Positions 24,388 to 57,283 of a DNA stretch of 64,000 nt are shown here, piece after piece. The position numbers and the translations under genes are program-made. A model generated the notes under the pieces. It was given only the letters and a program-made list of their open reading frames with translations, was not told the origin of the DNA and did not search any database. Location: assembly GCA_944358985.1 (NCBI GenBank), contig CALVSI010000003.1, positions 41,388 through 105,387 of the forward strand, read 5' to 3'. Within the stretch, counting starts at the first letter, position 1. The number at the start of each line of letters is the position of its first letter. This DNA comes from an uncultured Bacilli bacterium. Its GTDB lineage: Bacteria > Bacillota_I > Bacilli_A > RFN20 > CAG-826.

Positions 24388-24798
24388 GTGAGTAAAAAAA
24401 TCGCAAAAGTAGTGAAGATGGAACTTCCTGGTGGCGATGCCAAACCAGGACCAAAACTTGCTTCTGCCGGTGTTGTTATGCCAAAGTTTTGTACCGACTT
24501 TAATGCAAAAACTGCCGATAGACGAGGAGAGATTGTTCCAGTTATTATCACTGCCTATGAAGACAAGACATTTAGTTTTGTCATCAAAACCTCACCTGTT
24601 GCAGGTTTAATCTTAAAAGCAGCAGGAGTCAGTAAAGGTTCTGGCAATTCTAAAAACATCGTTGGACATATTTCCAAAGAAGATTTAAGAAAAATTGCCG
24701 AATACAAATTACCTGATTTAAATTGCCATGACGTTGAATCTGCAATGAAAATTGTTGCTGGTTCATGCCGTAACATGGGAATTAAAGTGGATGACTAA
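24388..24798 (+). CDS. rplK: 50S ribosomal protein L11
   Basis: 136 aa with a GTG start and an AAAGGAGG SD. Contains the typical PGPKLASAGVVMPKFCTDFN. Confidence 0.95.
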   Translation: MSKKIAKVVKMELPGGDAKPGPKLASAGVVMPKFCTDFNAKTADRRGEIVPVIITAYEDKTFSFVIKTSPVAGLILKAAGVSKGSGNSKNIVGHISKEDLRKIAEYKLPDLNCHDVESAMKIVAGSCRNMGIKVDD

Positions 24799-25496: not shown

Positions 25497-25643
25497 TTCC
25501 ATCTTGGTCGGCTAATTAGATTTCAATATACCTAAGACAGTAACGGCTTTGCTTAATAATGTTACCGAGGTGGAATATAGATTTAGTTATTTCTCCTTAA
25601 CGTATATTGAACCTCAAAAATTTTAAAAGAAGGAGGTAAAACG
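25497..25643 (+). promoter_or_regulatory. Probable L10(L12)4 autoregulatory leader upstream of rplJ
   Basis: An 11-bp long-range helix pairs UUCCAUCUUGG (25497-25507) with CCGAGGUGGAA (25565-25575, 2 G-U pairs). It encloses an internal hairpin GUAAC..GUUAC and a CCUAAGACAG segment. Position and size fit the L10 leader known upstream of rplJ in Firmicutes. I could not run a covariance model. Confidence 0.5.
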
Positions 25644-43863: not shown

Positions 43864-44964
43864 ATGAAAGAAAAAAAGAAAGAAGAAAAATATTTAGATA
43901 TTGCTCCAATTACCAAGGGAAGAAGAATGTTAGTGTTTCTTGGGGATTTCTTTATTAATTTTATTGTTGCGATGTTTATATTTAATATTATTGCATTTCC
44001 TATTGGACAAGTTAGTTCTGGTTATGATGAAAAAATGGCTTTAATTGATAATGCCGAAAAAGATAGAAATCAAGTATTATATGATAATAAACTTTTGTAT
44101 TACGAATTGGATGAGGAAAAAAATTCTCTTCAATTAAATTTAAATTACACTTTTGATTTATATTTACGTTACTACGTGTTTGAAAATGATGAAGATGTTC
44201 AATATGAAGTCATTAAGAAATATTATGTTGAAATAGTTAAAGACGAATCTTTGTATTTAAATTTGTATCGTGATGTTAACAAAAGTTATAACTTTTTTGA
44301 TATAACAAATAACAATATTCATCTTAAACAAGAATACAAAGATAGTTTGAAATTGTATTTTGATGAAGATGATGTTTTAGGAGAAGAAGATTTACATAAC
44401 TATGATACTTTTTTAAATAACGTTTTCTTGTTTTTATATTCTGAAATGCTTTTAAATATCGAACAAAATAATACTATTCCAGAATATAACAACTATCAAA
44501 CTGTTGTTAAAGAAGTTAACAATTATTATGATATTTTAATTGTTACGTGTTCTTATGTCTCGTTTTTAATTAGCAGTATTATCTTTTATTTAGTTATACC
44601 TATGATTAATAAAAGCGGAAAGACAATAACAATGCAAATAATGAAAATTGAAAGAGTGGCAATTAACAATTTATATTTTTTAAAACGAAAAGAAAGAATA
44701 TTACAATTTGTTTTTGAATTAGTATTTAACTTAGCTTTCATCATGTTTTTACCATCATTTGTAGTTAGTTTTAATTATTTATTTTCCGCAGGGACTCTTT
44801 TTATTGTATCTTTAATTTCTTTAATTTTAATAATTGCTTCTTTTGTATCTATTTTACTAACAGCGTATAATCGCAGTTTAATTGACTTTATTTCTCAAAC
44901 TGTTTTAATATCAAGTGATGACTTTGATGAAATGGCAAGAATAAAAGGATATTTACATGATTGA
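43864..44964 (+). CDS. RDD-family membrane protein with a large inserted soluble domain (paralog 1)
   Basis: 366 aa, starting 3 nt after the ZIP stop. The N-terminal RDD-like segment is ITKGRRMLVFLGDFFINFIV and the distal segment is PMINKSGKTITMQIMKIERV. About 170 aa of Asn/Tyr/Glu-rich soluble sequence separates them. Confidence 0.6.
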   Translation: MKEKKKEEKYLDIAPITKGRRMLVFLGDFFINFIVAMFIFNIIAFPIGQVSSGYDEKMALIDNAEKDRNQVLYDNKLLYYELDEEKNSLQLNLNYTFDLYLRYYVFENDEDVQYEVIKKYYVEIVKDESLYLNLYRDVNKSYNFFDITNNNIHLKQEYKDSLKLYFDEDDVLGEEDLHNYDTFLNNVFLFLYSEMLLNIEQNNTIPEYNNYQTVVKEVNNYYDILIVTCSYVSFLISSIIFYLVIPMINKSGKTITMQIMKIERVAINNLYFLKRKERILQFVFELVFNLAFIMFLPSFVVSFNYLFSAGTLFIVSLISLILIIASFVSILLTAYNRSLIDFISQTVLISSDDFDEMARIKGYLHD

Positions 44965-45994
44965 AAACAAAGACAATAAAACTTATATAACTTACCAATA
45001 CGCAAGATTTTTCAAACGTGTTATGGCTAATCTAATTGATATTATTTTATTTTTGTTTTGTTTTGGTATTTTATTTGTTTCCACAAGAGCAATAGTTAAT
45101 TCCACAGAATATGGCAAAAATGTTAACGAAGAATTATATAACATTCGTTTAGAAAGCGGGCTATATGAACGTGTTGTTAGTCAGGATAATCGTTTATTAG
45201 ATATAGTTAGTTATATTAACGAATTCTATGGTTCCGCTAGTCAAAAAAAATCTAATGCAGTTGGATCTATTAATAAATTTTTAAATTATAGTCAAAAAGT
45301 GTGTGATGAGAAAACATATAATGAAATTTATGAAAGTTATTTAAATTATTTTTATGATGATGAATTAGTGTATTTTGATGAAAAAACTAATACAAGCACG
45401 CCTTATTTTTTAAAAGAAGTGGATGATGATGGTTTTGTAATTGAAAATGAAGAATGTCCTGCTAATTATTTAGAGTATTATGAAAATGCTTATGCACCAT
45501 TTATTGATAACGTATTGCAAGGTTATTTAATTACCGCAATTCCTAATTATTATGAACTAAATAAATTTTCTGGTGATATGTTATTTTATGTTGAAATACC
45601 AGTTTCTTATTTGTTGTCAGGTATATTAATTTATTTTGTTCCGACATTAATTTTTAAAAGAGGAAGAAAAACTTTTGGGAAAGCTATTTATCGTATTGGT
45701 TTAGTGGATAAAAACTTTCTAAATCCATCATTTGGTAGAAGTTTTGCAAGGTTTTGCATATTTTATTTTGCTGAATTAATTCTTTCATTGTTTACATTTG
45801 GTATTCCATACATTATTTCATTTTCGTTAATGGCGTTTTCTAAAAAAAGACAAGGTTTTTGCGATTACATGTTGGGGTTGTATGAAGTAGATACTACAAA
45901 TCTAAAAATATTTTATAATCTCACTGATGCAAAAATTAATTCGATTGAAAAGCCAACAAAAGATATCAAATTTAAAAATCGTGATTTAACATAA
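44957..45994 (+). CDS. RDD-family membrane protein with a large inserted soluble domain (paralog 2)
   Basis: 345 aa. Its start overlaps the previous stop (ATGATTGA). RDD-like segments are YARFFKRVMANLIDIILFLF and TLIFKRGRKTFGKAIYRIGLVDKN. Confidence 0.6.
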   Translation: MIENKDNKTYITYQYARFFKRVMANLIDIILFLFCFGILFVSTRAIVNSTEYGKNVNEELYNIRLESGLYERVVSQDNRLLDIVSYINEFYGSASQKKSNAVGSINKFLNYSQKVCDEKTYNEIYESYLNYFYDDELVYFDEKTNTSTPYFLKEVDDDGFVIENEECPANYLEYYENAYAPFIDNVLQGYLITAIPNYYELNKFSGDMLFYVEIPVSYLLSGILIYFVPTLIFKRGRKTFGKAIYRIGLVDKNFLNPSFGRSFARFCIFYFAELILSLFTFGIPYIISFSLMAFSKKRQGFCDYMLGLYEVDTTNLKIFYNLTDAKINSIEKPTKDIKFKNRDLT

Positions 45995-46087: not shown

Positions 46088-46131
46088 TTAATTGCACGAA
46101 TAATTAAATAATTATTGGAGGTTAATTGCCC

Positions 46132-48225
46132 ATGAGCAATAAAAGGTTATTCCTAACGGCGTCTATTGTCGCGATTGGTTTAGGTGGTGTTGCTTTGTTA
46201 AGCACGTCACTTTCACAACCTTCCTATAATTTTTCTCAAACAAAAAACATTAATAATGCAGCTAGTATCGATACGAAGAAAAATGCTGAAATAGTTATTG
46301 AAGATTTTGATTTTGAAAACGCTATTGGATTGTCGACAAGTGATTTAAGCATATCAATTACAAAATCATCTATAACTCCTGAAACACAGTCTTATTCTGT
46401 AACATTTTCTTCATCGATTTTGGCTTATGCTAATAGAGATGGAAAAGTTTATGTAACAATAACTGATCCATCATTTAATCCTAATGAACAAGAAACAATT
46501 TCAGATCCAGATTTAAGACCTAGATATCCTGGAGCAGTTTATACTATTACGAATGTTAAAACTAATAATGGATTAGGTGAATCTGTTGTTATTCCTCGTA
46601 CGATGGCAAGAGGTACACAATTTTACATCGATATAGATACAATTTATGAAAACGCTATTGATGAGACCAATAAAGCGAATGTAAATTCCATTGTTATTCC
46701 AAATAACATTGAATATATTTCTGAAAATGCATTTACAGGGTTAACCTTTCCTGACGTTAAAATTTATTGTGAAGCAGATGAAAAACCTGAAGGATGGGCC
46801 GATAATTGGACAGATTGTCAAAATATTGTTTGGGGATATACTCTAACTGAGGAACAAGAAAAAATAGCCACTTATAATGTACAAAGCAATCGTACTTTTG
46901 GTAATGATAGAAATTTCATGCTTGGATATGAAGATGGTGATGGTAGATATTATCCTTTGATTATGAAATATGATTTATTGGATTTATCCACTAATAGCGT
47001 AAGCGAAGAATATGCTGTTCTTCCAATAGATAGCGGAATTAGAAATTATGATGTCAATAGCCGCTATGAAGGTGTTGGAAGTTCTGTTGGTTCTTCAACT
47101 TATACAAAAACCATCGATATAGAAATGAGTGAGTCATATCAAATCCAAGATGACACTATCGTTTTTTATGGTATTTATGATGCCGAAAGAGAAGGACCAG
47201 GTAAACCATATTTTCCTGTTACTACTAATTCCTACTATGCAGGGGCTGGTGTAGGATATGCAATGCGAGAAAACATATCTGATTATATTACTTATGAATT
47301 TGATATGAGTTCTTCTTTTCAAGGCTTTACATCATTGTCAATGAATGTTGATAGAGTCCCTGGCATTTATGAAAAACTTAAAGAATCAACTTATGAAACT
47401 AATAAAGCAAATATCGCTAATGGGTTAATGTCAATTAGATATCGCTTTGTTAACTTAAATTCAATGTATTATCAAATAACATATGAATATAATGGCGAAC
47501 TTATTTCTGTTGATGTTCCAATCAATAGCGATATTCCAAGATATATTTTATCTTATGAAAAAGGAAATTATGTTTCGTTCTTAATTGAAAATTCCACTGT
47601 TGGAGAAGGATTTAACGGATCTAATATTAAAGAATTTTCTCTTGTTGGATTAACTATTTCAATGGATTTATTCACAACAAGTGGGGCAATTGTTTCTAAA
47701 TCATCAACCTCAACAAGATTTGGTGTTATTCCAGTAATTAGAACTGGCACTATGGTTGTACCAGAAGCCAAATCCACCGACAGCGGTACTACAAATTATT
47801 ATTTTGACAGCGTCAACTTCTATAATGGCGATTTAGTATTGATTCTAACTTGCGTTATATTTGCTGTTGTTTTTACATTAGGTGCAGTCGGATTATTCTT
47901 ATATATGAGACACAAATATCGTAATGATGAATTCAGACGTGTAAAACCTAAAAAATTTATTAAATCCGCAATTACATTATTTGCAGGAATGTTAACAGTA
48001 ATTTTAGCTATAATCTTCATTTACTTTAGAAGCGTCCCATTTAACAATGCGATTGTTGTTTTCAATCCTGTCGACATTTATGTCATTGTGTTTGCTATTG
48101 CTTCTGTGCTATTTATTGGCTATTACATTCGATATCTTTTAATAACTGTTAAGGCCGAAAGAGAACGAAGAAGAGTTATAAAATTAAAGTTGGATGAATC
48201 ATCAGATGATGATGGTACAAAATAA
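46132..48225 (+). CDS. Surface-exposed BspA-type leucine-rich-repeat protein with N-terminal signal/anchor and three C-terminal TM helices
   Basis: ORF track 46126..48225; the ATG at 46132 with GGAGG 10 nt upstream is preferred. The LRR_5-like block is VVIPRTMARGTQFYIDIDTIYENAI..VNSIVIPNNIEYISENAFTGL..VKIYCEADEKPEGWADNW. The C-terminal TMs are LVLILTCVIFAVVFTLGAVGLFLY, AITLFAGMLTVILAIIFIYF and IYVIVFAIASVLFIGYYIRYLL, followed by a charged tail. Confidence 0.65.
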   Translation: MSNKRLFLTASIVAIGLGGVALLSTSLSQPSYNFSQTKNINNAASIDTKKNAEIVIEDFDFENAIGLSTSDLSISITKSSITPETQSYSVTFSSSILAYANRDGKVYVTITDPSFNPNEQETISDPDLRPRYPGAVYTITNVKTNNGLGESVVIPRTMARGTQFYIDIDTIYENAIDETNKANVNSIVIPNNIEYISENAFTGLTFPDVKIYCEADEKPEGWADNWTDCQNIVWGYTLTEEQEKIATYNVQSNRTFGNDRNFMLGYEDGDGRYYPLIMKYDLLDLSTNSVSEEYAVLPIDSGIRNYDVNSRYEGVGSSVGSSTYTKTIDIEMSESYQIQDDTIVFYGIYDAEREGPGKPYFPVTTNSYYAGAGVGYAMRENISDYITYEFDMSSSFQGFTSLSMNVDRVPGIYEKLKESTYETNKANIANGLMSIRYRFVNLNSMYYQITYEYNGELISVDVPINSDIPRYILSYEKGNYVSFLIENSTVGEGFNGSNIKEFSLVGLTISMDLFTTSGAIVSKSSTSTRFGVIPVIRTGTMVVPEAKSTDSGTTNYYFDSVNFYNGDLVLILTCVIFAVVFTLGAVGLFLYMRHKYRNDEFRRVKPKKFIKSAITLFAGMLTVILAIIFIYFRSVPFNNAIVVFNPVDIYVIVFAIASVLFIGYYIRYLLITVKAERERRRVIKLKLDESSDDDGTK

Positions 48226-48239
48226 ATAAGGAGTTAGAT

Positions 48240-50168
48240 ATGGAAATTAGAATTAAAGATTTAACTAAAATCTTCCCAGGCGATCCAAAGAAAAACATTC
48301 GTGACACAATTGCTGTCAAAGATTTAGACTTTGTTGTCCCTGATGGTAAATTGGTTGGATTGTTAGGACCTTCTGGATGTGGCAAATCTACAACACTTTA
48401 TATGATAAGTGGTTTGCAAAATCCAACATCTGGAGAAGTTTGGTTTGGTGATCAAGAAGTTACAAATCTATCTCCTGAAAAAAGAGGTATTGGTTTAGTT
48501 TTCCAAAACTATGCTTTATATCCTCACATGACGATTTATAAAAACATCGAATTCCCTTTGACTAATTTGAAAGTCGAAGTACCACTTGTTGACTTTTATA
48601 ATTATGAATATGTAGTTGAACACGATGTAAAAGAAAATGAAAAATTATATTTCTTACAAAAGTCTATTAGATCGTTGATGATGCGTGCTGGATTATCTTT
48701 TAATCAATATAGTGTTCAAATTGAAAAAAACAAAGAACATCCTGATCACATTATAATTCACATTTTGTTAAAGAAAGTGTCAGTGGAAGCTAAAAAATTA
48801 ATAGAAGAAAACTTTCCACTTATTATTAAATCACCTTTAACCTTATTAAAAGAAGAAAAAGCTAGCGAAACACTTTATGATAGTTCGTTTAGAGCCACTG
48901 TTAATAATGTCAGTGATAACGCAATCACATCCTTAACATTTAAAGGCGATTTAACAAAGAAATTTGATGTCGGTAATATTGATGATTTGATTAATAAGAC
49001 CAAAAATATTATAAAAACTAATAAATTTGCTCATATTGAAGGTGTCCTTATTACTAGAACACAATCAGGCGGTTATGAATTGATGGCAATGTTAAATAAT
49101 CTCAATTTCGCAAGAATTGAAGAGTGTGTTAAAGCAATTTCGTCTGTTTATAACTTTAACAGCGTTAATACTTTTATCACTGATATGAAAGATAAAAGTT
49201 TAGAAGTTGTTGTCAAAAATCATTTAAAACAAAACAATATCAAATATTCTGATTTCAAGTTGTATTTTGATAAGAAAAATATCAAATTGTACTTCAAATT
49301 AGTGCGCGTTAGCAAAGAAGGCGCAAAAGATGTTTTAGATGAATTGGCAAAACAATTACAATTAACGGATATCGAATTATCTTCAACGATTGCAATCGCT
49401 CATCGTAAATTGACAAAAGAAGAAAGAAGATCGATTGTTATGTCCACTGCGAAGTTAGTGCAAGTAGATGAATATTTGCAAAGAAAGCCTTCTCAATTAT
49501 CTGGTGGTCAACAACAACGTGTCGCTATTGCTCGTGCTCTTGTTAAACGACCAAGAGTGTTATTATTAGACGAACCATTATCTAACTTAGATGCTCGTTT
49601 AAGATTACAAACTAGAGAAGAAATTCGTCGTATTCAAAAAGAAACTGGTATTACAACAGTTTTCGTCACTCATGACCAAGAAGAAGCAATGTCCATTTCT
49701 GATAAGATTGTCGTTATGAAATTTGGAGAAATGCAACAAATTGACGCTCCACAAAACGTTTATAACGATCCTGCTAACTTATTCGTTGCACAATTCTTAG
49801 GTACCCCTCCAATTAATGTCTTTAAAGGCGAAATTAAAGACAACAAAGTTGTTGTTGGAGATGATGTTGTTTATACATTAAAAGAAAAGGTTGCAGATAA
49901 AAAAGTTTATGTTGCAATACGTCCAGAAGGTTTTGCAATTGCGGATAAGAAAGATAAAGAAGTTTTGCACGCCAAATTATCTATGATTCAAATTCTTGGA
50001 CGCGATATTTCAATGGTGGCAACAAATCCACAGTGTACAAAAGAGACATTTAAAATAATTATTTCAAGTGAAGATCGCACTGATGAAGAAAATCTATCCC
50101 TAAAAGTTAAACCAAATAAGATGTTTATATTTGACGCAGATAGTGAAGAAAGAATCTATATCAAATAG
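48240..50168 (+). CDS. ABC importer ATP-binding protein, MalK/UgpC/MsmX type, with a ~276-aa insertion in the helical subdomain
   Basis: 642 aa. Contains Walker A GPSGCGKST, Q-loop LVFQNYALYPHMT, signature LSGGQQQRVAIARA, Walker B LLLDEPLSNLD, H-loop VTHDQ and a C-terminal TOBE-like domain. Canonical family members are about 360-380 aa. Confidence 0.9.
   Translation: MEIRIKDLTKIFPGDPKKNIRDTIAVKDLDFVVPDGKLVGLLGPSGCGKSTTLYMISGLQNPTSGEVWFGDQEVTNLSPEKRGIGLVFQNYALYPHMTIYKNIEFPLTNLKVEVPLVDFYNYEYVVEHDVKENEKLYFLQKSIRSLMMRAGLSFNQYSVQIEKNKEHPDHIIIHILLKKVSVEAKKLIEENFPLIIKSPLTLLKEEKASETLYDSSFRATVNNVSDNAITSLTFKGDLTKKFDVGNIDDLINKTKNIIKTNKFAHIEGVLITRTQSGGYELMAMLNNLNFARIEECVKAISSVYNFNSVNTFITDMKDKSLEVVVKNHLKQNNIKYSDFKLYFDKKNIKLYFKLVRVSKEGAKDVLDELAKQLQLTDIELSSTIAIAHRKLTKEERRSIVMSTAKLVQVDEYLQRKPSQLSGGQQQRVAIARALVKRPRVLLLDEPLSNLDARLRLQTREEIRRIQKETGITTVFVTHDQEEAMSISDKIVVMKFGEMQQIDAPQNVYNDPANLFVAQFLGTPPINVFKGEIKDNKVVVGDDVVYTLKEKVADKKVYVAIRPEGFAIADKKDKEVLHAKLSMIQILGRDISMVATNPQCTKETFKIIISSEDRTDEENLSLKVKPNKMFIFDADSEERIYIK
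48576..49403 (+). other. Insertion domain within the ABC ATPase (aa ~113-388), four degenerate strand-turn-strand-helix units
   Basis: The insert sits between FPLTNLKV and LTKEERRSIVMSTAKLVQVDEYLQRKPSQLSGGQ. The four units are YSVQIEKNKEHPDHIIIHILLKKVSVEAKKLIEENF, FRATVNNVSDNAITSLTFKGDL..NIDDLINKTKNIIK, IEGVLITRTQSGGYELMAMLNNLNFARIEECVKAISSVY and FKLYFDKKNIKLYFKLVRVSKEGAKDVLDELAKQLQL. Confidence 0.6.
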
Positions 50169-50183
50169 TTATAGGTGAAGTTT

Positions 50184-51257
50184 ATGTTTAAATTGAAGAA
50201 GAAAGAAGAAATGGTGGAAAACGTCAACGTTAACGCTGATGGAACAGCGGTTCTTTCTGACACGACTTATAACGAAGAAGAAAACGTTGTTGTTAGACTC
50301 ATTTCTCATCGTAAAAACAAAAAACCTTATCAAATTACTGGTATTGAAGATGTCAGTGCTAAAAACAATTGGAAAGCCTGGCTATATCTTGGACCAGTTA
50401 TAGTTTTAATCGCAGTATTTTTGATTTATCCTTTGATTAACACTATTTTTATCGCCTTTACTGAAAACTATCAATATGCATCTGGTCAATTTGATGGTTT
50501 CACATTAAATAACTTTGGTGTTATTTTAAATTTGACACCGACAGCGTTAGGAGTTCACGAAGAATATTTTACTAGATATGCTATTCCTAACACCTTTTTA
50601 ATCGTTTTTGTAACTGTTCCTATTTCAACCTTATTAGCGTTAATTATTTCAGTTGCTTTAAATTCTATAAAATGGTTCCAAAAAATATTACAAACAGTAT
50701 TTTTCTTACCATATGTTACTAACGCTATCGCGGTTGGTATGGTTTTCAGCGTTATATTTGATGATCATGGTATTATCAATTATATTTTCAATACTGATAT
50801 AACTTGGATTTATGGTGCTCAACCAATGACCGCTATGATTCCACTTTGTTTATACATCATCTGGTCCTCCATACCATTTAAAATTTTAGTTTTCTTAAGT
50901 GGTTTACAAGGAATTGATAAGCAATATTATCAAGCTGCTCAAATCGATTCTTGTAGTCGTGGTAAAGTATTATGGAAAATTACTGTTCCATTATTATCAC
51001 CTCAAATACTTTATATTCTTGTTACAAGCTTTATTGGTGCGTTTAAAGAATATACTTCTGTTGTTGGTTTGTTCGATGGACCTGGAACAATGGGTGAAAA
51101 TGGTGATCCAAATATGGAAACAATCGTTTTCTATATTTATGATAAACTTGCAAATCAAACTTCATTAGCGGCAGCAGCTGCTGTGTTCTTGTTTGTTATT
51201 ATCTTATTATTTACGTTATTACAATTCGCGGTTTCTAAATCGCGTGTCCATTATTAG
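50184..51257 (+). CDS. ABC importer permease (MalF/UgpA-like) with ~65-aa cytoplasmic N-terminal extension
   Basis: ORF track 50175..51257 starts at GTG; the ATG at 50184 with AGGTGA upstream is preferred. Six TM segments with an EAA-like loop: GIDKQYYQAAQIDSCSRGKVLWKITVPLLSP. Confidence 0.85.
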   Translation: MFKLKKKEEMVENVNVNADGTAVLSDTTYNEEENVVVRLISHRKNKKPYQITGIEDVSAKNNWKAWLYLGPVIVLIAVFLIYPLINTIFIAFTENYQYASGQFDGFTLNNFGVILNLTPTALGVHEEYFTRYAIPNTFLIVFVTVPISTLLALIISVALNSIKWFQKILQTVFFLPYVTNAIAVGMVFSVIFDDHGIINYIFNTDITWIYGAQPMTAMIPLCLYIIWSSIPFKILVFLSGLQGIDKQYYQAAQIDSCSRGKVLWKITVPLLSPQILYILVTSFIGAFKEYTSVVGLFDGPGTMGENGDPNMETIVFYIYDKLANQTSLAAAAAVFLFVIILLFTLLQFAVSKSRVHY

Positions 51258-51271
51258 GAAGGAGGCAGTTT

Positions 51272-52273
51272 ATGGAAAAAAACAATTCGTCTAATAAAAA
51301 AATAAATAAACCTGTAAATAGTTCTCCTTATCCTATTTTTGCACCAGATGTTGATTCAATTGTAATTTCAATAGAAGAAGCTGGTCGTACAGTGGATTCA
51401 ATCAAAAGACAAGAAAAAGTCACACATATTATTTCAACGATATTGACTTATATATTTATCGTTGCACTTGCTCTTGTCGTTATTTTCCCATTTTATTGGA
51501 TGATTATTACATCTTTAAAACAAAATAGCGAAATTACAAATGTTAATCAAACGTTTTTCCCAACAATAGTGATGTGGTCAAACTATGTTTACGTTTTCCA
51601 AGTATTCGATTTTGTCACATTTATGGGTAACACTATTGTTGTTGCGATATTCTCAACAATTGGTACATTATTGACGACCATTTTTGCGGCGTTCGCGTTT
51701 GCAAGATTAAAATTTAAAGGCCGCGAATCATTATTTTTAGTCTTCTTGATGACTATGATGATTCCTGGCGAAATGATGGTCATTTCCAATTATGTTACCG
51801 TTGCTTCTTTTGGTTGGATTGGTGAAGGTCAAACACTAATTGAAGCTTACGCTGCGATGATTGTTCCTTTCTGGATCAGCGTCTTCTACATTTATTTATT
51901 GCGTCAAAACTTTAAACAGATTCCTAATGAACTATACTTGGCCGCGAAAGTGGATGGAAAATCAGATTGGAGTTTCCTTTGGAGAGTTATGGTTCCATTA
52001 GCAATGCCAACATTGATTTCTATTACTATTTTGAAATTTATGGGAACATGGAATTCTTACGTGTGGCCAAATTTGGTTACTCAAGAAGAATCCTTTAGAC
52101 TTATTTCTAATGGTCTTAGAAGTTCAAGCTTCGTTGATGTCGACTCAGGACAAACAGAATATGGTTATCAAACCGCTGCAACGATGCTTGTCACTGTCCC
52201 GTTATTCTTATTATTCGTCTTCTTTAGAAAATACATCATGCGTGGTGTTGGAAGAGCGGGTATTAAAGGATAA
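51272..52273 (+). CDS. ABC importer permease (MalG/UgpE-like) with ~55-aa N-terminal extension
   Basis: 333 aa with an AGGAGG SD. EAA-like loop is IPNELYLAAKVDGKSDWSFLWRVMVPLAMP. Confidence 0.85.
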   Translation: MEKNNSSNKKINKPVNSSPYPIFAPDVDSIVISIEEAGRTVDSIKRQEKVTHIISTILTYIFIVALALVVIFPFYWMIITSLKQNSEITNVNQTFFPTIVMWSNYVYVFQVFDFVTFMGNTIVVAIFSTIGTLLTTIFAAFAFARLKFKGRESLFLVFLMTMMIPGEMMVISNYVTVASFGWIGEGQTLIEAYAAMIVPFWISVFYIYLLRQNFKQIPNELYLAAKVDGKSDWSFLWRVMVPLAMPTLISITILKFMGTWNSYVWPNLVTQEESFRLISNGLRSSSFVDVDSGQTEYGYQTAATMLVTVPLFLLFVFFRKYIMRGVGRAGIKG

Positions 52274-52335
52274 TAAAATTGATTATTATAATGCTTACAT
52301 TATTTTAAAAAAAGACTTATATTTTGGAGGTATTT

Positions 52336-53823
52336 ATGAAAAAAAGTCGAATAATGCTAATGTTGCCTGTCGCACTTGCCATGTTATTAGCATCTTGTGG
52401 TCCAAACAATGCTGGTAGCACAACTAGTGTTGCTGGTGGTGGATCAGGCGGAGGTTTTGTTAAAGAAAAAACCGATATATATTTTTGGCACACATTTTCT
52501 TATGTGACAGAGCTTGAAAATATTGTCAACGCATTTCAAAAAATCGAACCAAATGTCACTGTTCACTTAGAAAAACAAAATGGTGGATATGATGGATTAA
52601 AAACAACAGTAATTAACGGTATTGCTGCTGGAAACACTCCTGATTTAGTTCTTGCTTATCCAGATCATGTCGCAGAATATCTTGATTATGGTATTGCTGT
52701 TGATGCAGATCCTTACATTAATAATGAAGAATATGGCTGGACCGAAGAAGAATATAATGATGTCATTCCAAATTTTATGGAAGAAGGTCAATCTTACAGC
52801 ATTCCTGGTACTTATTCCTTGCCTATGGCTAAATCCACTGAAGCAATGTTTTATAATGAAGATGTTTTAATTGGTTTAGACTTGTCTGCTTATGATTCCA
52901 CTATTAACAATGGTGAAGCTTTGGATGCTGATTATTTAAATAATCTTACTTGGGAAGAGTTGTTCAAAAAATTATGTCCAGCAATTACTGCATATAACGA
53001 TGCTCAACCAGCAACTGAAAAGATTTTATTAGAAAATGAAGCTTATCATGGTATTTTTGCATACGATAGCGATGATAATTTATTCATCACACTCGCTAAA
53101 CAATATGGTTATGGATATACCGCTTTAAATGAAACAACAGGTACTGGTGAAATATTATTCAACAATCCTGAAATGAAATCTTTAATGAAAGTATTTAATG
53201 ATGCTGCAAATAAAGGATATATCATTACTAAAGGTACTTCTGGTGGCAATTACACCAATGAATTCTTTACAAAACAAAATACTTTATTTTCAGTAGGTTC
53301 CACTGGTGGATATAAATATCAAGTCGCTGATACTTTCGATGTTGGTGTTGCTAATATTCCAAGAGCAGAAGGCAAAGACTATTATGTTATCAACCAAGGA
53401 CCATCTATTGCTATGTTAGAAACTAACAAAGCTAATACTGAAAATCGTAAATTAGCAACTTGGTTGTTCTATAAATTCCTAACAAATGCTGAAAATACTT
53501 TATATTGGGGAACTCAAACAGGATATATGCCAGTTCGTTTATCCAGTTATGAAAGCGATGCTTATCTAGACTACATTAGTTTAGAAGGTAAATCAGAATA
53601 TTCCCCTGAATTATTAGCTGCTAAAGTTGGTGTTTATAGTCAAACAATCGCAAGCAGTGGTTCATTATTTGTTTCCGCAGTATTTAAAGGAAGTTCAACA
53701 GCTCGTCAACAAGCCGCTTCTGTCATGAGCCAAGTCTTACTTGCTTCTAAAGAATTGTGCACTGACAATTGGTTGAATGGTATTTTTGAAACAGCAGTCA
53801 ATCAAACAAAATTAGCAATGTAA
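52336..53823 (+). CDS. ABC substrate-binding lipoprotein 1 (family-1 extracellular solute-binding protein)
   Basis: ORF track 52324..53823 starts at TTG; the ATG at 52336 with a GGAGG SD is preferred. Lipobox is MLLASC and the Gly/Ser tether is GPNNAGSTTSVAGGGSGGG. Blocks shared with the next gene are IYFWHTF, AYPDHVAEYL, AMFYNEDV and LTWEE. Confidence 0.8.
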   Translation: MKKSRIMLMLPVALAMLLASCGPNNAGSTTSVAGGGSGGGFVKEKTDIYFWHTFSYVTELENIVNAFQKIEPNVTVHLEKQNGGYDGLKTTVINGIAAGNTPDLVLAYPDHVAEYLDYGIAVDADPYINNEEYGWTEEEYNDVIPNFMEEGQSYSIPGTYSLPMAKSTEAMFYNEDVLIGLDLSAYDSTINNGEALDADYLNNLTWEELFKKLCPAITAYNDAQPATEKILLENEAYHGIFAYDSDDNLFITLAKQYGYGYTALNETTGTGEILFNNPEMKSLMKVFNDAANKGYIITKGTSGGNYTNEFFTKQNTLFSVGSTGGYKYQVADTFDVGVANIPRAEGKDYYVINQGPSIAMLETNKANTENRKLATWLFYKFLTNAENTLYWGTQTGYMPVRLSSYESDAYLDYISLEGKSEYSPELLAAKVGVYSQTIASSGSLFVSAVFKGSSTARQQAASVMSQVLLASKELCTDNWLNGIFETAVNQTKLAM

Positions 53824-53852
53824 ATTGTTAGATTATTTAAGGAGGCAATTAC

Positions 53853-55319
53853 ATGAAAAAAACTACACTCATTGGTTCATTAGCACTTCTAGCAACATTA
53901 GCTACAAGTGCTTGTGGACCTAATAATAATGGTGGCGATGGTGATACAGTCAATATTTATTTTTGGCATACTTTTGGTCAAACCATCGTTGAAACACTCG
54001 AAAGAAAAATTAATCAATTCGTTGATTTAGTTGAAGAAAACGAAGGCGTTAAAGTTCAAATTCATTTGAGCAATTCTGGTTCTTATGACGATATTTTAAA
54101 GAAAATTAATGATGGATTTGCTGCTGGTAACATACCCACGATGGCGGTCGCTTATCCAGATCACGTCGCAGAATATTTAAATCGCGAAACCTACGCTGGA
54201 CAATATGTTGTAAATCTTCAAACTATGGCGGATAACGAAGAATACGGTTTTAATACTCAACCATATTTAGGCGATAGTGCTGGCATGGATGACTTTGTTC
54301 AAACTTATATTGATGAAGGCACACATTATGCTAGAGAAGGTTTATATTCTATTCCATTTATGAAGTCTAGCGAAATTATGTTTTATAATGTTGAAGCTGT
54401 TCAACTAGCTCTTAATGGTAATAGCGAATTCACAGGTTATCGTCCAGAATTTGCCGGAAGTGAAGATCAAATCAACGCTTTCTTAAGAAATTTAACTTGG
54501 GATGAATTTATGGATTTCTGTGAATTCATCAATGCGAATAAGCAATATATTTCTAACACTATTGAAGTTCCTGCATATTATGATAGTGATGCAAACTTAT
54601 TCATTTCTAAAATGTTCCAAAACAACGTTCCTTATTCTAGCGTTAATGAAGATGGAAGTGGAAATGTTGATTTTAAAGATGGAGAAGCTTTGCAAGCCGC
54701 AAAAGATATTGTTAGAGAATTAAAAGAAGATTTTGATAAAGGTTTATTTACCACTAAAGGTGTTAAAGGCACTTATGGTAGTAACGACTTTACTCAAATC
54801 AAATCAATTTTCTCTATTGGTTCAACTGGTGGAACTGGATATAACGTTCCTGCTAGTGATGCTTTTACCGTCGGTGTTGTTAAAGTTCCTTATGACAACA
54901 CTCCAATGTATGTTTCGCAAGGACCAACTCTTTGTATAATGAATTCTTCAACTATTAGCGAACAAGAAAATTCAATGCGTGTTCGTTATGCATGGGAATT
55001 CATTAAATATTTAACTAATGCTAATAATAATGTTGAAATATGCATTAATGGTAGCAATGGTTATGTTCCAGTTAGAGAATCAGCATATGAAACAGATGAT
55101 TTCATGGCTTTTATTGAAGGTGGAGATATTTACGCTGAAGCCTCACGTGTCTCTTTTGAAGACATCGATAACAACTTTATTGTTACTCCTGTTTTTAAAG
55201 GTAGTGCAACATTAAGAGATGAAGGCGGAAGCATTCTTGCCAGCGTCTTTAGAAATACTAAAGATATTGATACAGCCTTTGATGATGCTATCAATGAAAC
55301 ACTATTAGCAATGAGCTAA
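53853..55319 (+). CDS. ABC substrate-binding lipoprotein 2 (diverged paralog of the previous gene)
   Basis: 488 aa with an AAGGAGG SD. Lipobox is LATSAC and the tether is GPNNNGGDGD. Shared blocks are IYFWHTF, AYPDHVAEYL, IMFYNVEA and LTWDEF. Confidence 0.8.
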   Translation: MKKTTLIGSLALLATLATSACGPNNNGGDGDTVNIYFWHTFGQTIVETLERKINQFVDLVEENEGVKVQIHLSNSGSYDDILKKINDGFAAGNIPTMAVAYPDHVAEYLNRETYAGQYVVNLQTMADNEEYGFNTQPYLGDSAGMDDFVQTYIDEGTHYAREGLYSIPFMKSSEIMFYNVEAVQLALNGNSEFTGYRPEFAGSEDQINAFLRNLTWDEFMDFCEFINANKQYISNTIEVPAYYDSDANLFISKMFQNNVPYSSVNEDGSGNVDFKDGEALQAAKDIVRELKEDFDKGLFTTKGVKGTYGSNDFTQIKSIFSIGSTGGTGYNVPASDAFTVGVVKVPYDNTPMYVSQGPTLCIMNSSTISEQENSMRVRYAWEFIKYLTNANNNVEICINGSNGYVPVRESAYETDDFMAFIEGGDIYAEASRVSFEDIDNNFIVTPVFKGSATLRDEGGSILASVFRNTKDIDTAFDDAINETLLAMS

Positions 55320-55336
55320 TAAGAAAGGAAAATTAG

Positions 55337-56782
55337 ATGCTAAAATTTACTCGTAAAATTCCTTTGTTAGCTATTTTAGGTGTCGTGATGATTTCATTAG
55401 CGTCATGTACTCCTGATACTACTTCTACTCAGCCAGAATGGATAGATTATGTAAATGATGGTTCTGTTAGTTTGAAGTTAGATTATGAAGAGCATGATTT
55501 CTATACAGATGGAATTGGTCAAGTTACTGTCAAATACGAAAAACAATGTATTGATGGTGATACAGTCCACTTTGATCCAATTGTCACCACAACTAGTAGC
55601 GAACGTATTAAATCCCGTTTTTATGGTGTTGATACACCAGAATCAACTGGTAAAATTCAACCATGGGGTAAACAAGCAAGCGATTTCACTCATGAAAAAG
55701 TTTGGAATGCAGTGCAAAATGGTACGGTAGTTCTTTCCTCACCATATAATGACTATCACACTCCAGAACCAGATTCTACTGGTGAAAGATATGTCACCCT
55801 TGTTTGGATTAATGAAACAGTTAAAAATGCTCCTAAAGAAGACTTAATATTATTAAATTTAATGTTAGTTCAAGAAGGATATTCTACTGCTAAAAACGTT
55901 ATGGACTTCCCAGAAATGGCAGATACATTTACTGCCGCGGAAGCTCAAGCGAAAGCCTTCCAATTACATATTCATAGTTCTGAAAATCCACCAGGATGGA
56001 ATGACGGCGAATATCGTGTTGATGTCTCCTTGTTGGATTTAAAAATTGAAATTGAAAAGACTTTAGAAGATCCTGATTATATTCCAGAATATAATAATGA
56101 AAAAATTACATTTACTGGTACAGTTGCTGGATTTGCAAACCATATTCTTTATTTAGTCCAATACTTTACTGAAGAAGAAGGAGCCCGCTATCCAGAAGGA
56201 GAATATGCTGGAATTAATATTTTCGTCGGCATGTCTGATCCACCATCAAAATATAGAGAAAGAAATGCCTTTATTCAGGTTAGTGGAACAGCTGTTTATA
56301 GCAATTTTGGCTTCCAAATAACCGATACTGAAGGACGTTTTCCAAATACTATTTCTTATAGTGATTCTGATGCAAAAGTATTATTAACACCAGAAGAAAA
56401 TATTGATGAAGATTCACTCTATACATTTGAATATACACGCGAAGAATTAAACGATGTTGTTACTTTAAAAAATTATGAATCTTTAAATACCGCTGTTAAG
56501 GTAACTGAACCATTAGTTGTCCAAGATGTCTATATTGCTGCTAACAATGAAATTACAGTTTACTTTGAAAATTGTGAATTCAATGCATATGTTTGCTTTA
56601 TGTACCGTGGTAATCCTGATAAACCAAACGAATATTGGTATACTGAAGAACAATGGATTGGAAAACGTATGTATATCCAAGGCATTTATACCTATCATGA
56701 TTCCGTCAGCGGAAGAAGAAGTTGGCAAATTAACCCAACAAATAATGCAGACTTTGTTTGGGCGGATGCGCCTACTGCCTAA
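55337..56782 (+). CDS. Membrane-anchored lipoprotein nuclease: staphylococcal (thermo)nuclease domain plus C-terminal tandem OB-like module
   Basis: 481 aa with lipobox ISLASC. SNase catalytic and Ca-binding pattern is CIDGDTVHF..IKSRFYGVDTPES..GERYVTLVW..NLMLVQEGYSTA. The C-terminal OB-like pattern is ITFTGTVAGFANHILYLVQ..GINIFVG..NAFIQVSGTAVYSNFGFQIT. Confidence 0.8.
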   Translation: MLKFTRKIPLLAILGVVMISLASCTPDTTSTQPEWIDYVNDGSVSLKLDYEEHDFYTDGIGQVTVKYEKQCIDGDTVHFDPIVTTTSSERIKSRFYGVDTPESTGKIQPWGKQASDFTHEKVWNAVQNGTVVLSSPYNDYHTPEPDSTGERYVTLVWINETVKNAPKEDLILLNLMLVQEGYSTAKNVMDFPEMADTFTAAEAQAKAFQLHIHSSENPPGWNDGEYRVDVSLLDLKIEIEKTLEDPDYIPEYNNEKITFTGTVAGFANHILYLVQYFTEEEGARYPEGEYAGINIFVGMSDPPSKYRERNAFIQVSGTAVYSNFGFQITDTEGRFPNTISYSDSDAKVLLTPEENIDEDSLYTFEYTREELNDVVTLKNYESLNTAVKVTEPLVVQDVYIAANNEITVYFENCEFNAYVCFMYRGNPDKPNEYWYTEEQWIGKRMYIQGIYTYHDSVSGRRSWQINPTNNADFVWADAPTA

Positions 56783-56803
56783 ATAATATAAGGGGAGTTG
56801 TTT

Positions 56804-57283
56804 ATGTTATATTGTTCAAATTGTGGTAAAAAAATCGATGAAAAAAAAGTTGAAGCTAAATTGAATTCTTTAGTTTCTCAACAAAATGTTATTAACGATC
56901 AAACTGTAGTCGTTTATGTTTGCCCACGCTGCGAACATATTATTCATCGTGATTTAGATGAAAATGACGTTAAACAACTCTCACGTGCAGCACACGCTGA
57001 AATACAAAGAAGTAATAATTTCTTTTCATCAGGGATGGGTAATGTAGTTACTGGAGTTATTGCTTTAGCGATTGCTATCATCTTTTATTGCTTATCGATT
57101 GATTTGCAAAATCAAATGATTTTAGATACCCAATGTGCTGAATTTTATGTTTTCATTGTTTTAACAGTCATCGGTGGAGCAATGTTTATTGTTGGTCTCG
57201 TGTTGGCTATATTTGGTGCGGTTAAAAAACACCATTATTATAGTCTACTTGATGATATCAAAAATAAGACTTTTATCCAGTAA
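56804..57283 (+). CDS. Zinc-ribbon membrane protein (N-terminal CxxC..CxxC, two C-terminal TM helices)
   Basis: ORF track 56798..57283 starts at TTG; the ATG at 56804 with GGGGAG upstream is preferred. The zinc ribbon is CSNCGKKI..CPRCEHI. The TM helices are VVTGVIALAIAIIFYCL and FYVFIVLTVIGGAMFIVGLVLAIFGAV. Confidence 0.55.
   Translation: MLYCSNCGKKIDEKKVEAKLNSLVSQQNVINDQTVVVYVCPRCEHIIHRDLDENDVKQLSRAAHAEIQRSNNFFSSGMGNVVTGVIALAIAIIFYCLSIDLQNQMILDTQCAEFYVFIVLTVIGGAMFIVGLVLAIFGAVKKHHYYSLLDDIKNKTFIQ

Follow-up and report, generated by a model that had tools for sequence, protein, structure and literature searches.

The window analysed here, a stretch of 64,000 nucleotides from an uncultured Bacilli bacterium (contig CALVSI010000003.1), encodes an ATP-binding cassette (ABC) importer ATPase of the MalK/MsmX/UgpC type, whose nucleotide-binding domain (NBD) is interrupted by 280 additional residues (hereafter referred to as the insert). 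The limits of its parts were mapped by phmmer searches against all PDB chains, and all positions given are those of the window.

48240..50168, + strand: ABC importer ATPase, 642 amino acids, MalK/MsmX/UgpC type, insertion-bearing (open reading frame; PDB phmmer E 3.5e-81, in two stretches)
48240..48563, + strand: N-terminal part of the NBD, residues 1–108, with Walker A, the Q-loop and helix 1 of the helical subdomain (YKNIEFPLT); aligns to 2yyz 13–101
48564..49403, + strand: insertion, residues 109–388 (280 amino acids); unaligned to every solved homologue, modelled by AlphaFold2 with a mean predicted local distance difference test (pLDDT) score of 91.7
49404..49799, + strand: C-terminal part of the NBD, residues 389–520, with helical-subdomain helix 2, LSGGQ, Walker B, the D-loop and the H-loop; aligns to 2yyz from residue 103
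49800..50165, + strand: C-terminal OB/TOBE-type domain, residues 521–642; aligns to the C-terminal domains of 2yyz, 2it1 and MsmX

The motifs of the catalytic core follow each other in the canonical order in the translation, with GPSGCGKST at residues 43–51, Q89, LSGGQ at 420–424, LLLDE at 441–445 (within a Walker B spanning residues 440–445) and H478. Residues 20–108 correspond to residues 13–101 of 2yyz, and residues 389–639 to its residues 103–358 (E 3.5e-81); equivalent split alignments were obtained with MsmX (6yir), SugC (7cad) and MalK (1q12). At the C-terminus, the aligned residues 521–639 reach the last residues of both 2yyz and 2it1, and the Pfam model OB_MalK gives a sub-threshold match (E 0.003). 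An initial annotation of this locus had described a 642-residue ATPase with all canonical motifs and a TOBE-like C-terminal domain, and the translation and PDB alignments bear this out. The usual contiguous NBD of ∼240 amino acids, in a whole protein of ∼360–380, is however not found, as the domain is split at residues 108/389. The Pfam family ABC_tran matches in two pieces (E 1.1e-34), and the NCBIfam UgpC/GlcV/PotA-type models match in two stretches, every score being under the equivalog cut-off. The AAA_21 and SMC_N matches are split too, a pattern typical of interrupted ABC domains, because the insertion site lies after the Q-loop and before LSGGQ.

The 280 extra residues stand in place of a single loop residue, between the YKNIEFPL helix and the RKLTKEERR... 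helix, the first and second helices of the helical subdomain. Since both flanks align to solved homologues, the extra length forms one block, residues 109–388, and is not dispersed along the protein. This confirms a single discrete insert in the helical subdomain, where the initial annotation had placed it; the limits proposed there (48576–49403) agree to within four residues with those obtained by phmmer (48564–49403).

In a scan using one genome per species, the insert was found in 31 species genomes, all of them from uncultured Bacilli of gut or rumen, under the labels Bacilli, Bacillales, Erysipelotrichaceae or Coprobacillus. Complete ATPase genes are present in 30 of these, each encoding 635–648 amino acids, and a search with the full-length protein retrieved at least 120 metagenomic clusters of 635–722 amino acids and 60–99% identity. 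In view of those clusters, the 5 and 2 matches listed by two homologue searches with the insert alone are no measure of rarity. Core identity among orthologues is 85–100% (88–100% for the N-terminal part of the NBD in 30 orthologues, 85–99% for the C-terminal part), compared to 30–40% for the insert, whose length is nonetheless kept with nearly no insertions or deletions. For the insert, the ratio of non-synonymous to synonymous substitution rates (dN/dS) amounts to 0.08 in the comparison with the closest genome and to 0.22 in that with the next; the core gives 0–0.07. The insert is under purifying selection, and changes several-fold faster than the core, at four to five times its rate.

Some of the database entries with portions of the insert are chimeric fragments, as would be expected if the insert were an artefact or a mobile insertion, arising from misassembly, an intein or a fused foreign gene. 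I consider such an origin excluded: 31 genomes and at least 120 independent clusters have the insert at the same site and in frame, and it is under selection. An intein was specifically rejected on the junction residues. The boundaries fall between FPLT and NLKVE and between AIAH and RKLT, so that the insert begins N-L-K and finishes A-H before R; the Cys, Ser or Thr nucleophiles and the terminal His-Asn of an intein are both missing.

AlphaFold2 was run on the full-length ATPase with a shallow alignment, where the insert obtained pLDDT values of 75–94 and the core was unresolved, and on the insert only (12-sequence alignment), which gave a mean pLDDT of 91.7, a predicted template-modelling score of 0.67, 12 strands and 6 helices. 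Because this confidence is high, the insert is taken as folded and not as a disordered linker; this confirms it as a folded, conserved domain. The initial annotation had named a disordered, unconserved linker as the outcome that would speak against its proposal, and the modelled fold, the conserved length and the purifying selection all point the other way.

In the insert numbering (protein residue minus 109), the predicted elements, with b for strands and a for helices, run b-a-b-b-a-b (10–100), b-b-a-b-b-a-b (104–208) and a-b-b-a-b (210–275). The 12 strands and 6 helices suffice for three predicted four-stranded ferredoxin-like modules of ∼90 amino acids each, labeled D1, D2 and D3. The fourth strand of D3 may be either b5 or b9, and this choice decides whether D2 would be nested in D3. 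Mapped on the window, the predicted elements are as follows.

48567..48593, + strand: N-linker, KVEVPLV(D/T)F, nearly invariant (mean column entropy 0.36)
48594..48866, + strand: module D1, residues 119–209, predicted b-a-b-b-a-b (AlphaFold2 secondary structure)
48867..48902, + strand: D1–D2 linker and strand b5, SDALFDxxxRATV (entropy 0.68–1.05; D214 and R218 invariant)
48924..49190, + strand: module D2, residues 229–317, predicted b-a-b-b-a-b, the most variable module (AlphaFold2 secondary structure)
49194..49391, + strand: module D3, residues 319–384, predicted a-b-b-a-b (AlphaFold2 secondary structure; profile match to D1)
49242..49310, + strand: hairpin b10–b11, rich in Lys, Tyr and Phe, SDFKLYFDKKNxKVYFKL (entropy 0.9–1.4; D338, K340 and Y342 invariant)

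The best-conserved elements of the insert are the two linkers, strand b5 and the b10–b11 hairpin, the latter being the most conserved inside the insert. In the N-linker, V112, E113, P115, L116 and F119 are invariant in 29 sequences.

A Foldseek search of the PDB with the insert model returned, at E 1e-5 to 1e-6, tandem ACT pairs, domains III/V of LepA and EF-G, porter subdomains of AcrD and designed ferredoxin tandems. The ACT-type matches comprise 1u8s and 2nyi (GcvR-like), the aspartokinases 3mah and 3s1t, and SerB regulatory domains. With the full-length model the matches are dominated by the ABC core, so that only the search with the insert alone is informative, and a viral structure library returned generic ferredoxin-like matches only. 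Since identities are low (7–15%), as are the template-modelling scores (TM-scores, ≤0.36 normalised to the target), these matches show a fold class, not a family. Within that limit, the ferredoxin/ACT-like class is confirmed for the predicted structure, which displays the b-a-b-b-a-b topology of ACT domains in units of ∼70–90 amino acids. The initial annotation had suggested an ACT- or ferredoxin-like array; this stands for the fold class and fails for membership in the ACT family, as none of 29 inserts matches a Pfam ACT model. Nucleic-acid binding by the insert was also considered and set aside, because the net charge is near zero for each module (−1.5 for D1, +0.3 for D2 and +2.0 for D3).

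Sequence-based searches placed the insert in no known family. Among the 29 inserts, Pfam identified no recurrent family, and no match to the ACT clan at E ≤ 0.1 in any of them; for the ATPase of the window, neither Pfam nor NCBIfam gave anything significant within the insert, and the insert profile found nothing below E 0.45 among PDB sequences. An exhaustive hidden Markov model (HMM) search of 1.84 billion representatives gave 17 matches, all of them fragments of ATPases of the same lineage save one, a eukaryote-like repeat protein (P0022, E 6e-4) that I rejected as spurious. No stand-alone copy of the insert, nor any copy in another context, was found in that search, and the insert is considered confined to this ATPase because only the same ATPases were matched, the spurious match aside. 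It defines a domain family without a Pfam entry. A number of metagenomic "proteins" (P0015, P0016, P0019 and P0023) fuse part of the ATPase to a response-regulator receiver, an S24/LexA-like peptidase or a signal-peptide protein. Such entries most probably result from chimeric assembly or truncated gene calling, and do not represent alternative domain contexts.

The fold class raises the question of a ligand. The insert could be an ACT-like sensor of the imported substrate, a nucleotide or a second messenger, whose binding would lock the helical subdomain in an inactive state. This would amount to trans-inhibition from inside the NBD, not from a C-terminal domain. Ligand-binding ACT pairs (1u8s, 2nyi, 3mah, 3s1t and SerB) are indeed among the best Foldseek matches, and the conserved polar residues D214, R218, D248, D338, K340 and Y342 are grouped on few strands; it has also been shown that substrate-binding accessory ATPase domains inhibit type I importers (PMC3971661). 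However, the TM-scores on the target indicate a generic fold resemblance, ACT and related Pfam models match 0 of 29 inserts, and the profile search of PDB sequences described above was equally negative. The usual C-terminal OB/TOBE regulatory domain is moreover already in place, and a sensor would leave unexplained the specific co-variation with the permease tails described below. I therefore regard this explanation as rather unlikely, although it would be compatible with tail docking.

The initial annotation had read the insert as four tandem strand-turn-strand-helix repeats of 40–45 amino acids, built by internal duplication. Four hairpin-plus-helix elements do exist in the predicted secondary structure, as halves of larger modules, and those that make up D2 match each other weakly (E 0.005). 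In a self-alignment of the profile of 29 inserts (hhalign), however, no fourfold period was found, and the remaining pairs of hairpin-helix units gave E 0.05–0.4. The sole in-register off-diagonal signal was that of D1 against D3, with a score of 20.7 compared to 10.9 ± 2.4 for 100 column shuffles, one of which reached it; within the full profile, D1 against D3 gave E 0.04. The model also contains two further b-a elements and two single strands, which together with the hairpin-helix elements would give three four-stranded modules.

A natural variant of the ATPase bears on the same question. One protein of 722 amino acids (P0131; L032:7001-9169 and L033:7001-9169), found on three contigs in an otherwise identical operon, possesses an extra piece of 88 amino acids between b5 and b6. 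Aligned in register with the D2 profile across b-a-b-b-a(-b) (E 3.4e-5), this piece is a tandem copy of D2, and the sole natural change in copy number. Because P0131 copies a complete D2, the evolutionary unit is the whole module of ∼90 amino acids. The fourfold array is therefore largely refuted, and I consider it very unlikely.

The ATPase gene belongs to a block that is syntenic in all genomes examined, and that encodes, in order, an RDD protein, a surface protein of 699 amino acids, the ATPase, permease 1, permease 2, binding protein 1 and binding protein 2. The features of the operon in the window, other than the ATPase, are listed below.

46126..48225, + strand: membrane-anchored surface protein, 699 amino acids, with three C-terminal transmembrane helices; directly 5′ of the ATPase gene in 31 of 31 genomes
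50175..52273, + strand: two BPD_transp_1 permeases, 360 and 333 amino acids (Pfam; PDB homologues SugB/MalG/AlgM; synteny)
50175..50369, + strand: extra cytoplasmic N-terminal segment of permease 1, ∼54–62 amino acids (AlgM1 residue 9 aligns to residue 63)
51272..51427, + strand: extra cytoplasmic N-terminal segment of permease 2, ∼40–45 amino acids (SugB residue 20 aligns to residue 66, MalG residue 14 to residue 57)
52324..56782, + strand: two SBP_bac_8 lipoproteins and an SNase-domain lipoprotein of 481 amino acids (Pfam)

Both permeases thus carry an N-terminal tail that is missing from the solved AlgM1/M2, SugB and MalG. Each tail contains a strand-like, hydrophobic motif. In permease 1 this motif is T[IV]VRLVS..K.Y.VTGI[ED]DV across 30 orthologues, with the form TVVRLVS. 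In permease 2 it is a conserved Y[IP]DFK.V.VN.N[IL]VLS[IL]EE[AS]GKTVD[AS]IK, also written NIVLSIEEAGKTVDAIK, and the stretch NIVLSIEEAGKTVD is named for this permease.

Co-variation between the insert and the other operon proteins was evaluated from pairwise distances in 26 non-redundant species, after removal of a proxy for phylogeny (the ATPase core and both transmembrane cores). Distances in the insert correlate with those in the N-terminal motif of permease 2 (partial r 0.58, permutation p 0.0005), and more weakly with those of permease 1 (0.22, p 0.02). No co-variation of the insert with the binding protein was found. When all operon proteins were scanned in 137 windows of 36 residues, the five best windows all fell in the permease N-terminal segments (0.56, 0.49, 0.47, 0.46 and 0.37); the tail of permease 2 accounts for the top 3 of the 137, and the tail of permease 1 for the range 0.37–0.46. 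Control windows evolving equally fast (n = 81) have a mean of −0.02 ± 0.11 and a maximum of 0.27. On the ATPase side, the signal with the permease 2 tail is best for D1 (0.50–0.52), followed by the flanking helices of the helical subdomain (0.36–0.42) and the b10–b11 hairpin (0.40), and is just 0.08–0.18 for D2. The insert thus appears, from these distances, to co-evolve with the N-terminal tails of the permeases.

The 699-residue surface protein was included in this analysis. It possesses an N-terminal signal anchor and an ectodomain of ∼550 amino acids, is very fast-evolving (27–45% identity), and matches no family in Pfam or NCBIfam; a role as accessory surface subunit in the transporter is possible. 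The cytoplasmic tail of this protein is one candidate partner if the insert were a scaffold for something other than the permeases, the others being a cytoplasmic protein (for example an enzyme processing the imported compound) and the zinc-ribbon protein encoded downstream; alternatively, the insert could simply stabilise the ATPase, with no effect on coupling. Ferredoxin-like sheets often serve as protein-protein surfaces, adaptor surfaces often evolve fast, as the insert does at four to five times the rate of the core, and this uncharacterised membrane protein is kept directly 5′ of the ATPase in all genomes. It does not however co-vary with the insert, the partial r being 0.12 (p 0.12) for its C-terminal transmembrane region and tail, and −0.06 for its ectodomain. 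Overall, I find a role as scaffold or mere stabiliser unlikely.

Taken together, these observations show that the insert is a compact, selected, lineage-specific accessory domain of the ATPase of a type I, CUT1-like importer. As to its role, I tentatively propose, as a reading that is possible and somewhat short of probable, that it is an accessory docking or regulatory platform, located on the moving helical subdomain and engaging the permease tails. Published structural work shows that the helical subdomain, more variable than any other part of ABC ATPases, rotates in the course of the ATP cycle, and that the regulatory domains known from type I importers sit at the C-terminus (PMC3971661, PMC6906923). 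In the proposed arrangement, D1, D3 and the invariant N- and C-linkers would form a base beside the helical subdomain, and D2 would be a distal module, free to vary, and duplicable or expendable. The base would dock the conserved, lineage-specific N-terminal segments of both permeases in the cytoplasm, chiefly that of the MalG-like permease 2, and this would provide a second contact between ATPase and membrane domains, beside the coupling-helix groove. The helical subdomain turns against the RecA-like subdomain in each ATP cycle; a contact between base and tails would stabilise the assembly, and could tune or gate coupling.

Several points weigh against the docking proposal. Co-variation of distance matrices reports linked evolution, and not contact; the suggestion of the initial annotation that the insert tethers the N-terminal extensions of the permeases consequently gains a specific co-variation, and not a physical interaction. 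This co-variation rests on the 26 non-redundant species, on short segments that are hard to align and on inferred start codons, and only the insertion point indicates where the insert lies with respect to the membrane domains. Longer permease tails were looked for alongside the extra module of P0131 and not found, the permease lengths being unchanged, which fits a distal D2 and gives the proposal no positive support. Finally, a ferredoxin/ACT-like fold is equally typical of ligand-binding regulatory domains.

Docking and ligand sensing could also be combined. The insert would then be a novel control element of ABC importers, a switch on the rotating helical subdomain, worked by the permease tails and/or by a cytoplasmic ligand on the conserved Lys/Tyr-rich sheet of D3, and would license ATP-driven coupling from within the NBD and not from a C-terminal domain. 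This more elaborate mechanism is in my opinion unlikely as well. Binding of the permease tails by the insert has the merit of being a concrete structural hypothesis. The domain of 31 kDa, with its three predicted modules, sits on the element that passes ATP-driven motion to the coupling helices, which would be a different site for control.

The surroundings of the ATPase may give some indication of the substrate. In the window, as in the closest relative (L001) and L032/L033, the syntenic block is followed by the gene of the SNase-domain lipoprotein; these are the loci whose examined flank reaches that far. Below threshold, the two binding proteins match the mycoplasma families Lipoprotein_X (MG185/MG260) and lipo_P68 in Pfam and NCBIfam. 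Operons encoding surface lipoproteins, an SNase-type nuclease and an ABC importer have been reported in mycoplasma (PMC12115388), and because the layout described here resembles these nuclease and ABC uptake operons, the substrate might, by analogy, be nucleic-acid-derived rather than a sugar.

Further 3′, the nuclease gene is followed by an open reading frame of 161 amino acids (56798–57283, + strand), with an N-terminal zinc-ribbon-like CxxC, for which all Pfam matches are sub-threshold, and hydrophobic segments. Two adjoining multi-pass membrane proteins are encoded 5′ of the operon (43864–45994, + strand), the second belonging to the RDD family, and most related genomes keep them at this position. 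The pair is immediately preceded by fusA and tuf in L032/L033, as in the window, so that synteny extends over the whole neighbourhood. Between positions 24388 and 42756, large open reading frames fit rplJ/rplL, rpoB, rpoC, rpsL/rpsG, fusA and tuf by size and position; of these names, only fusA and tuf are tool-based (Pfam on the syntenic L032/L033 genes). An L10 leader (Rfam RF00557) is found at 25513–25596 (+ strand). The window has ∼32% G+C and uses genetic code 11, an ordinary chromosomal context.

Compared to known systems, the closest counterparts of this ATPase are those of CUT1 importers, MalK, MsmX, UgpC and SugC (2yyz, 6yir, 7cad, 1q12). The catalytic motifs, the core from end to end and the C-terminal OB/TOBE domain are common to both, as are the usual operon partners, two BPD_transp_1 permeases and SBP_bac_8 lipoproteins. 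The protein described here differs in its length of 642 instead of ∼360–380 amino acids, owing to the insert of 280 residues, and in its tail-extended permeases.

The repeated b-a-b-b-a-b modules of the predicted structure are shared with tandem ACT proteins (1u8s, 2nyi, aspartokinase and SerB), which provide the best Foldseek matches. The 7–15% identity, the TM-scores of at most 0.36, which indicate another arrangement of the modules, and the lack of any match to ACT HMMs nevertheless set the insert apart from these.

A domain inserted between the Q-loop and LSGGQ is also found in other ABC ATPases, as the coiled coils of Rad50, SMC and RecN, the insertion and UvrB-binding domains of UvrA, and the "arm" of ABCF and ABCE proteins. 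Such inserts mediate partner binding. In contrast to the ATPase described here, the Rad50, SMC, UvrA and ABCF types are soluble and associated with DNA or the ribosome, and carry coiled coils, zinc modules or helical hairpins as inserts instead of ferredoxin-like arrays.

The operon itself follows, as I infer, a logic similar to that of the mycoplasma nuclease-ABC operons (MG187/MPN134), and resembles these operons for the uptake of nucleic-acid precursors. The mycoplasma ATPases MG187 and MPN134 have ∼585 amino acids; any relation between their additional length and the insert would be beyond the reach of HMMER with the insert profile, as its 17 matches are all close relatives or fragments. 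If it is true that the ∼200 extra residues of the MG187 type are the same device, this would provide a role for an uncharacterised part of a transporter in a near-minimal genome. The family described here is common in metagenomes from gut and rumen (at least 120 clusters), and belongs to a strictly conserved operon that includes a surface nuclease.

Finally, accessory domains on the ATPase are known from other importers, in the C2 domain of MetN, in ModC and in the TOBE/OB domain of MalK, and the MetN C2 domain shares the ferredoxin-like fold class. No sequence relation between the insert and these domains was found with Pfam on the 29 inserts or with the insert profile against the PDB. They are C-terminal and hold the two ATPase subunits apart, whereas the insert lies inside the helical subdomain, has three predicted modules, and exists beside a C-terminal OB domain. 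To my knowledge, no accessory domain in the helical subdomain of an ABC importer has been described. A role in trans-inhibition is established for C-terminal accessory domains (PMC3971661), and in structural reviews the accessory domains described for ABC importers are either C-terminal and regulatory, or fused to the membrane or binding domains (PMC3971661, PMC6906923). What is new here is a canonical CUT1-type ATPase with an accessory domain, of three predicted modules, at a position outside those described in these reviews.

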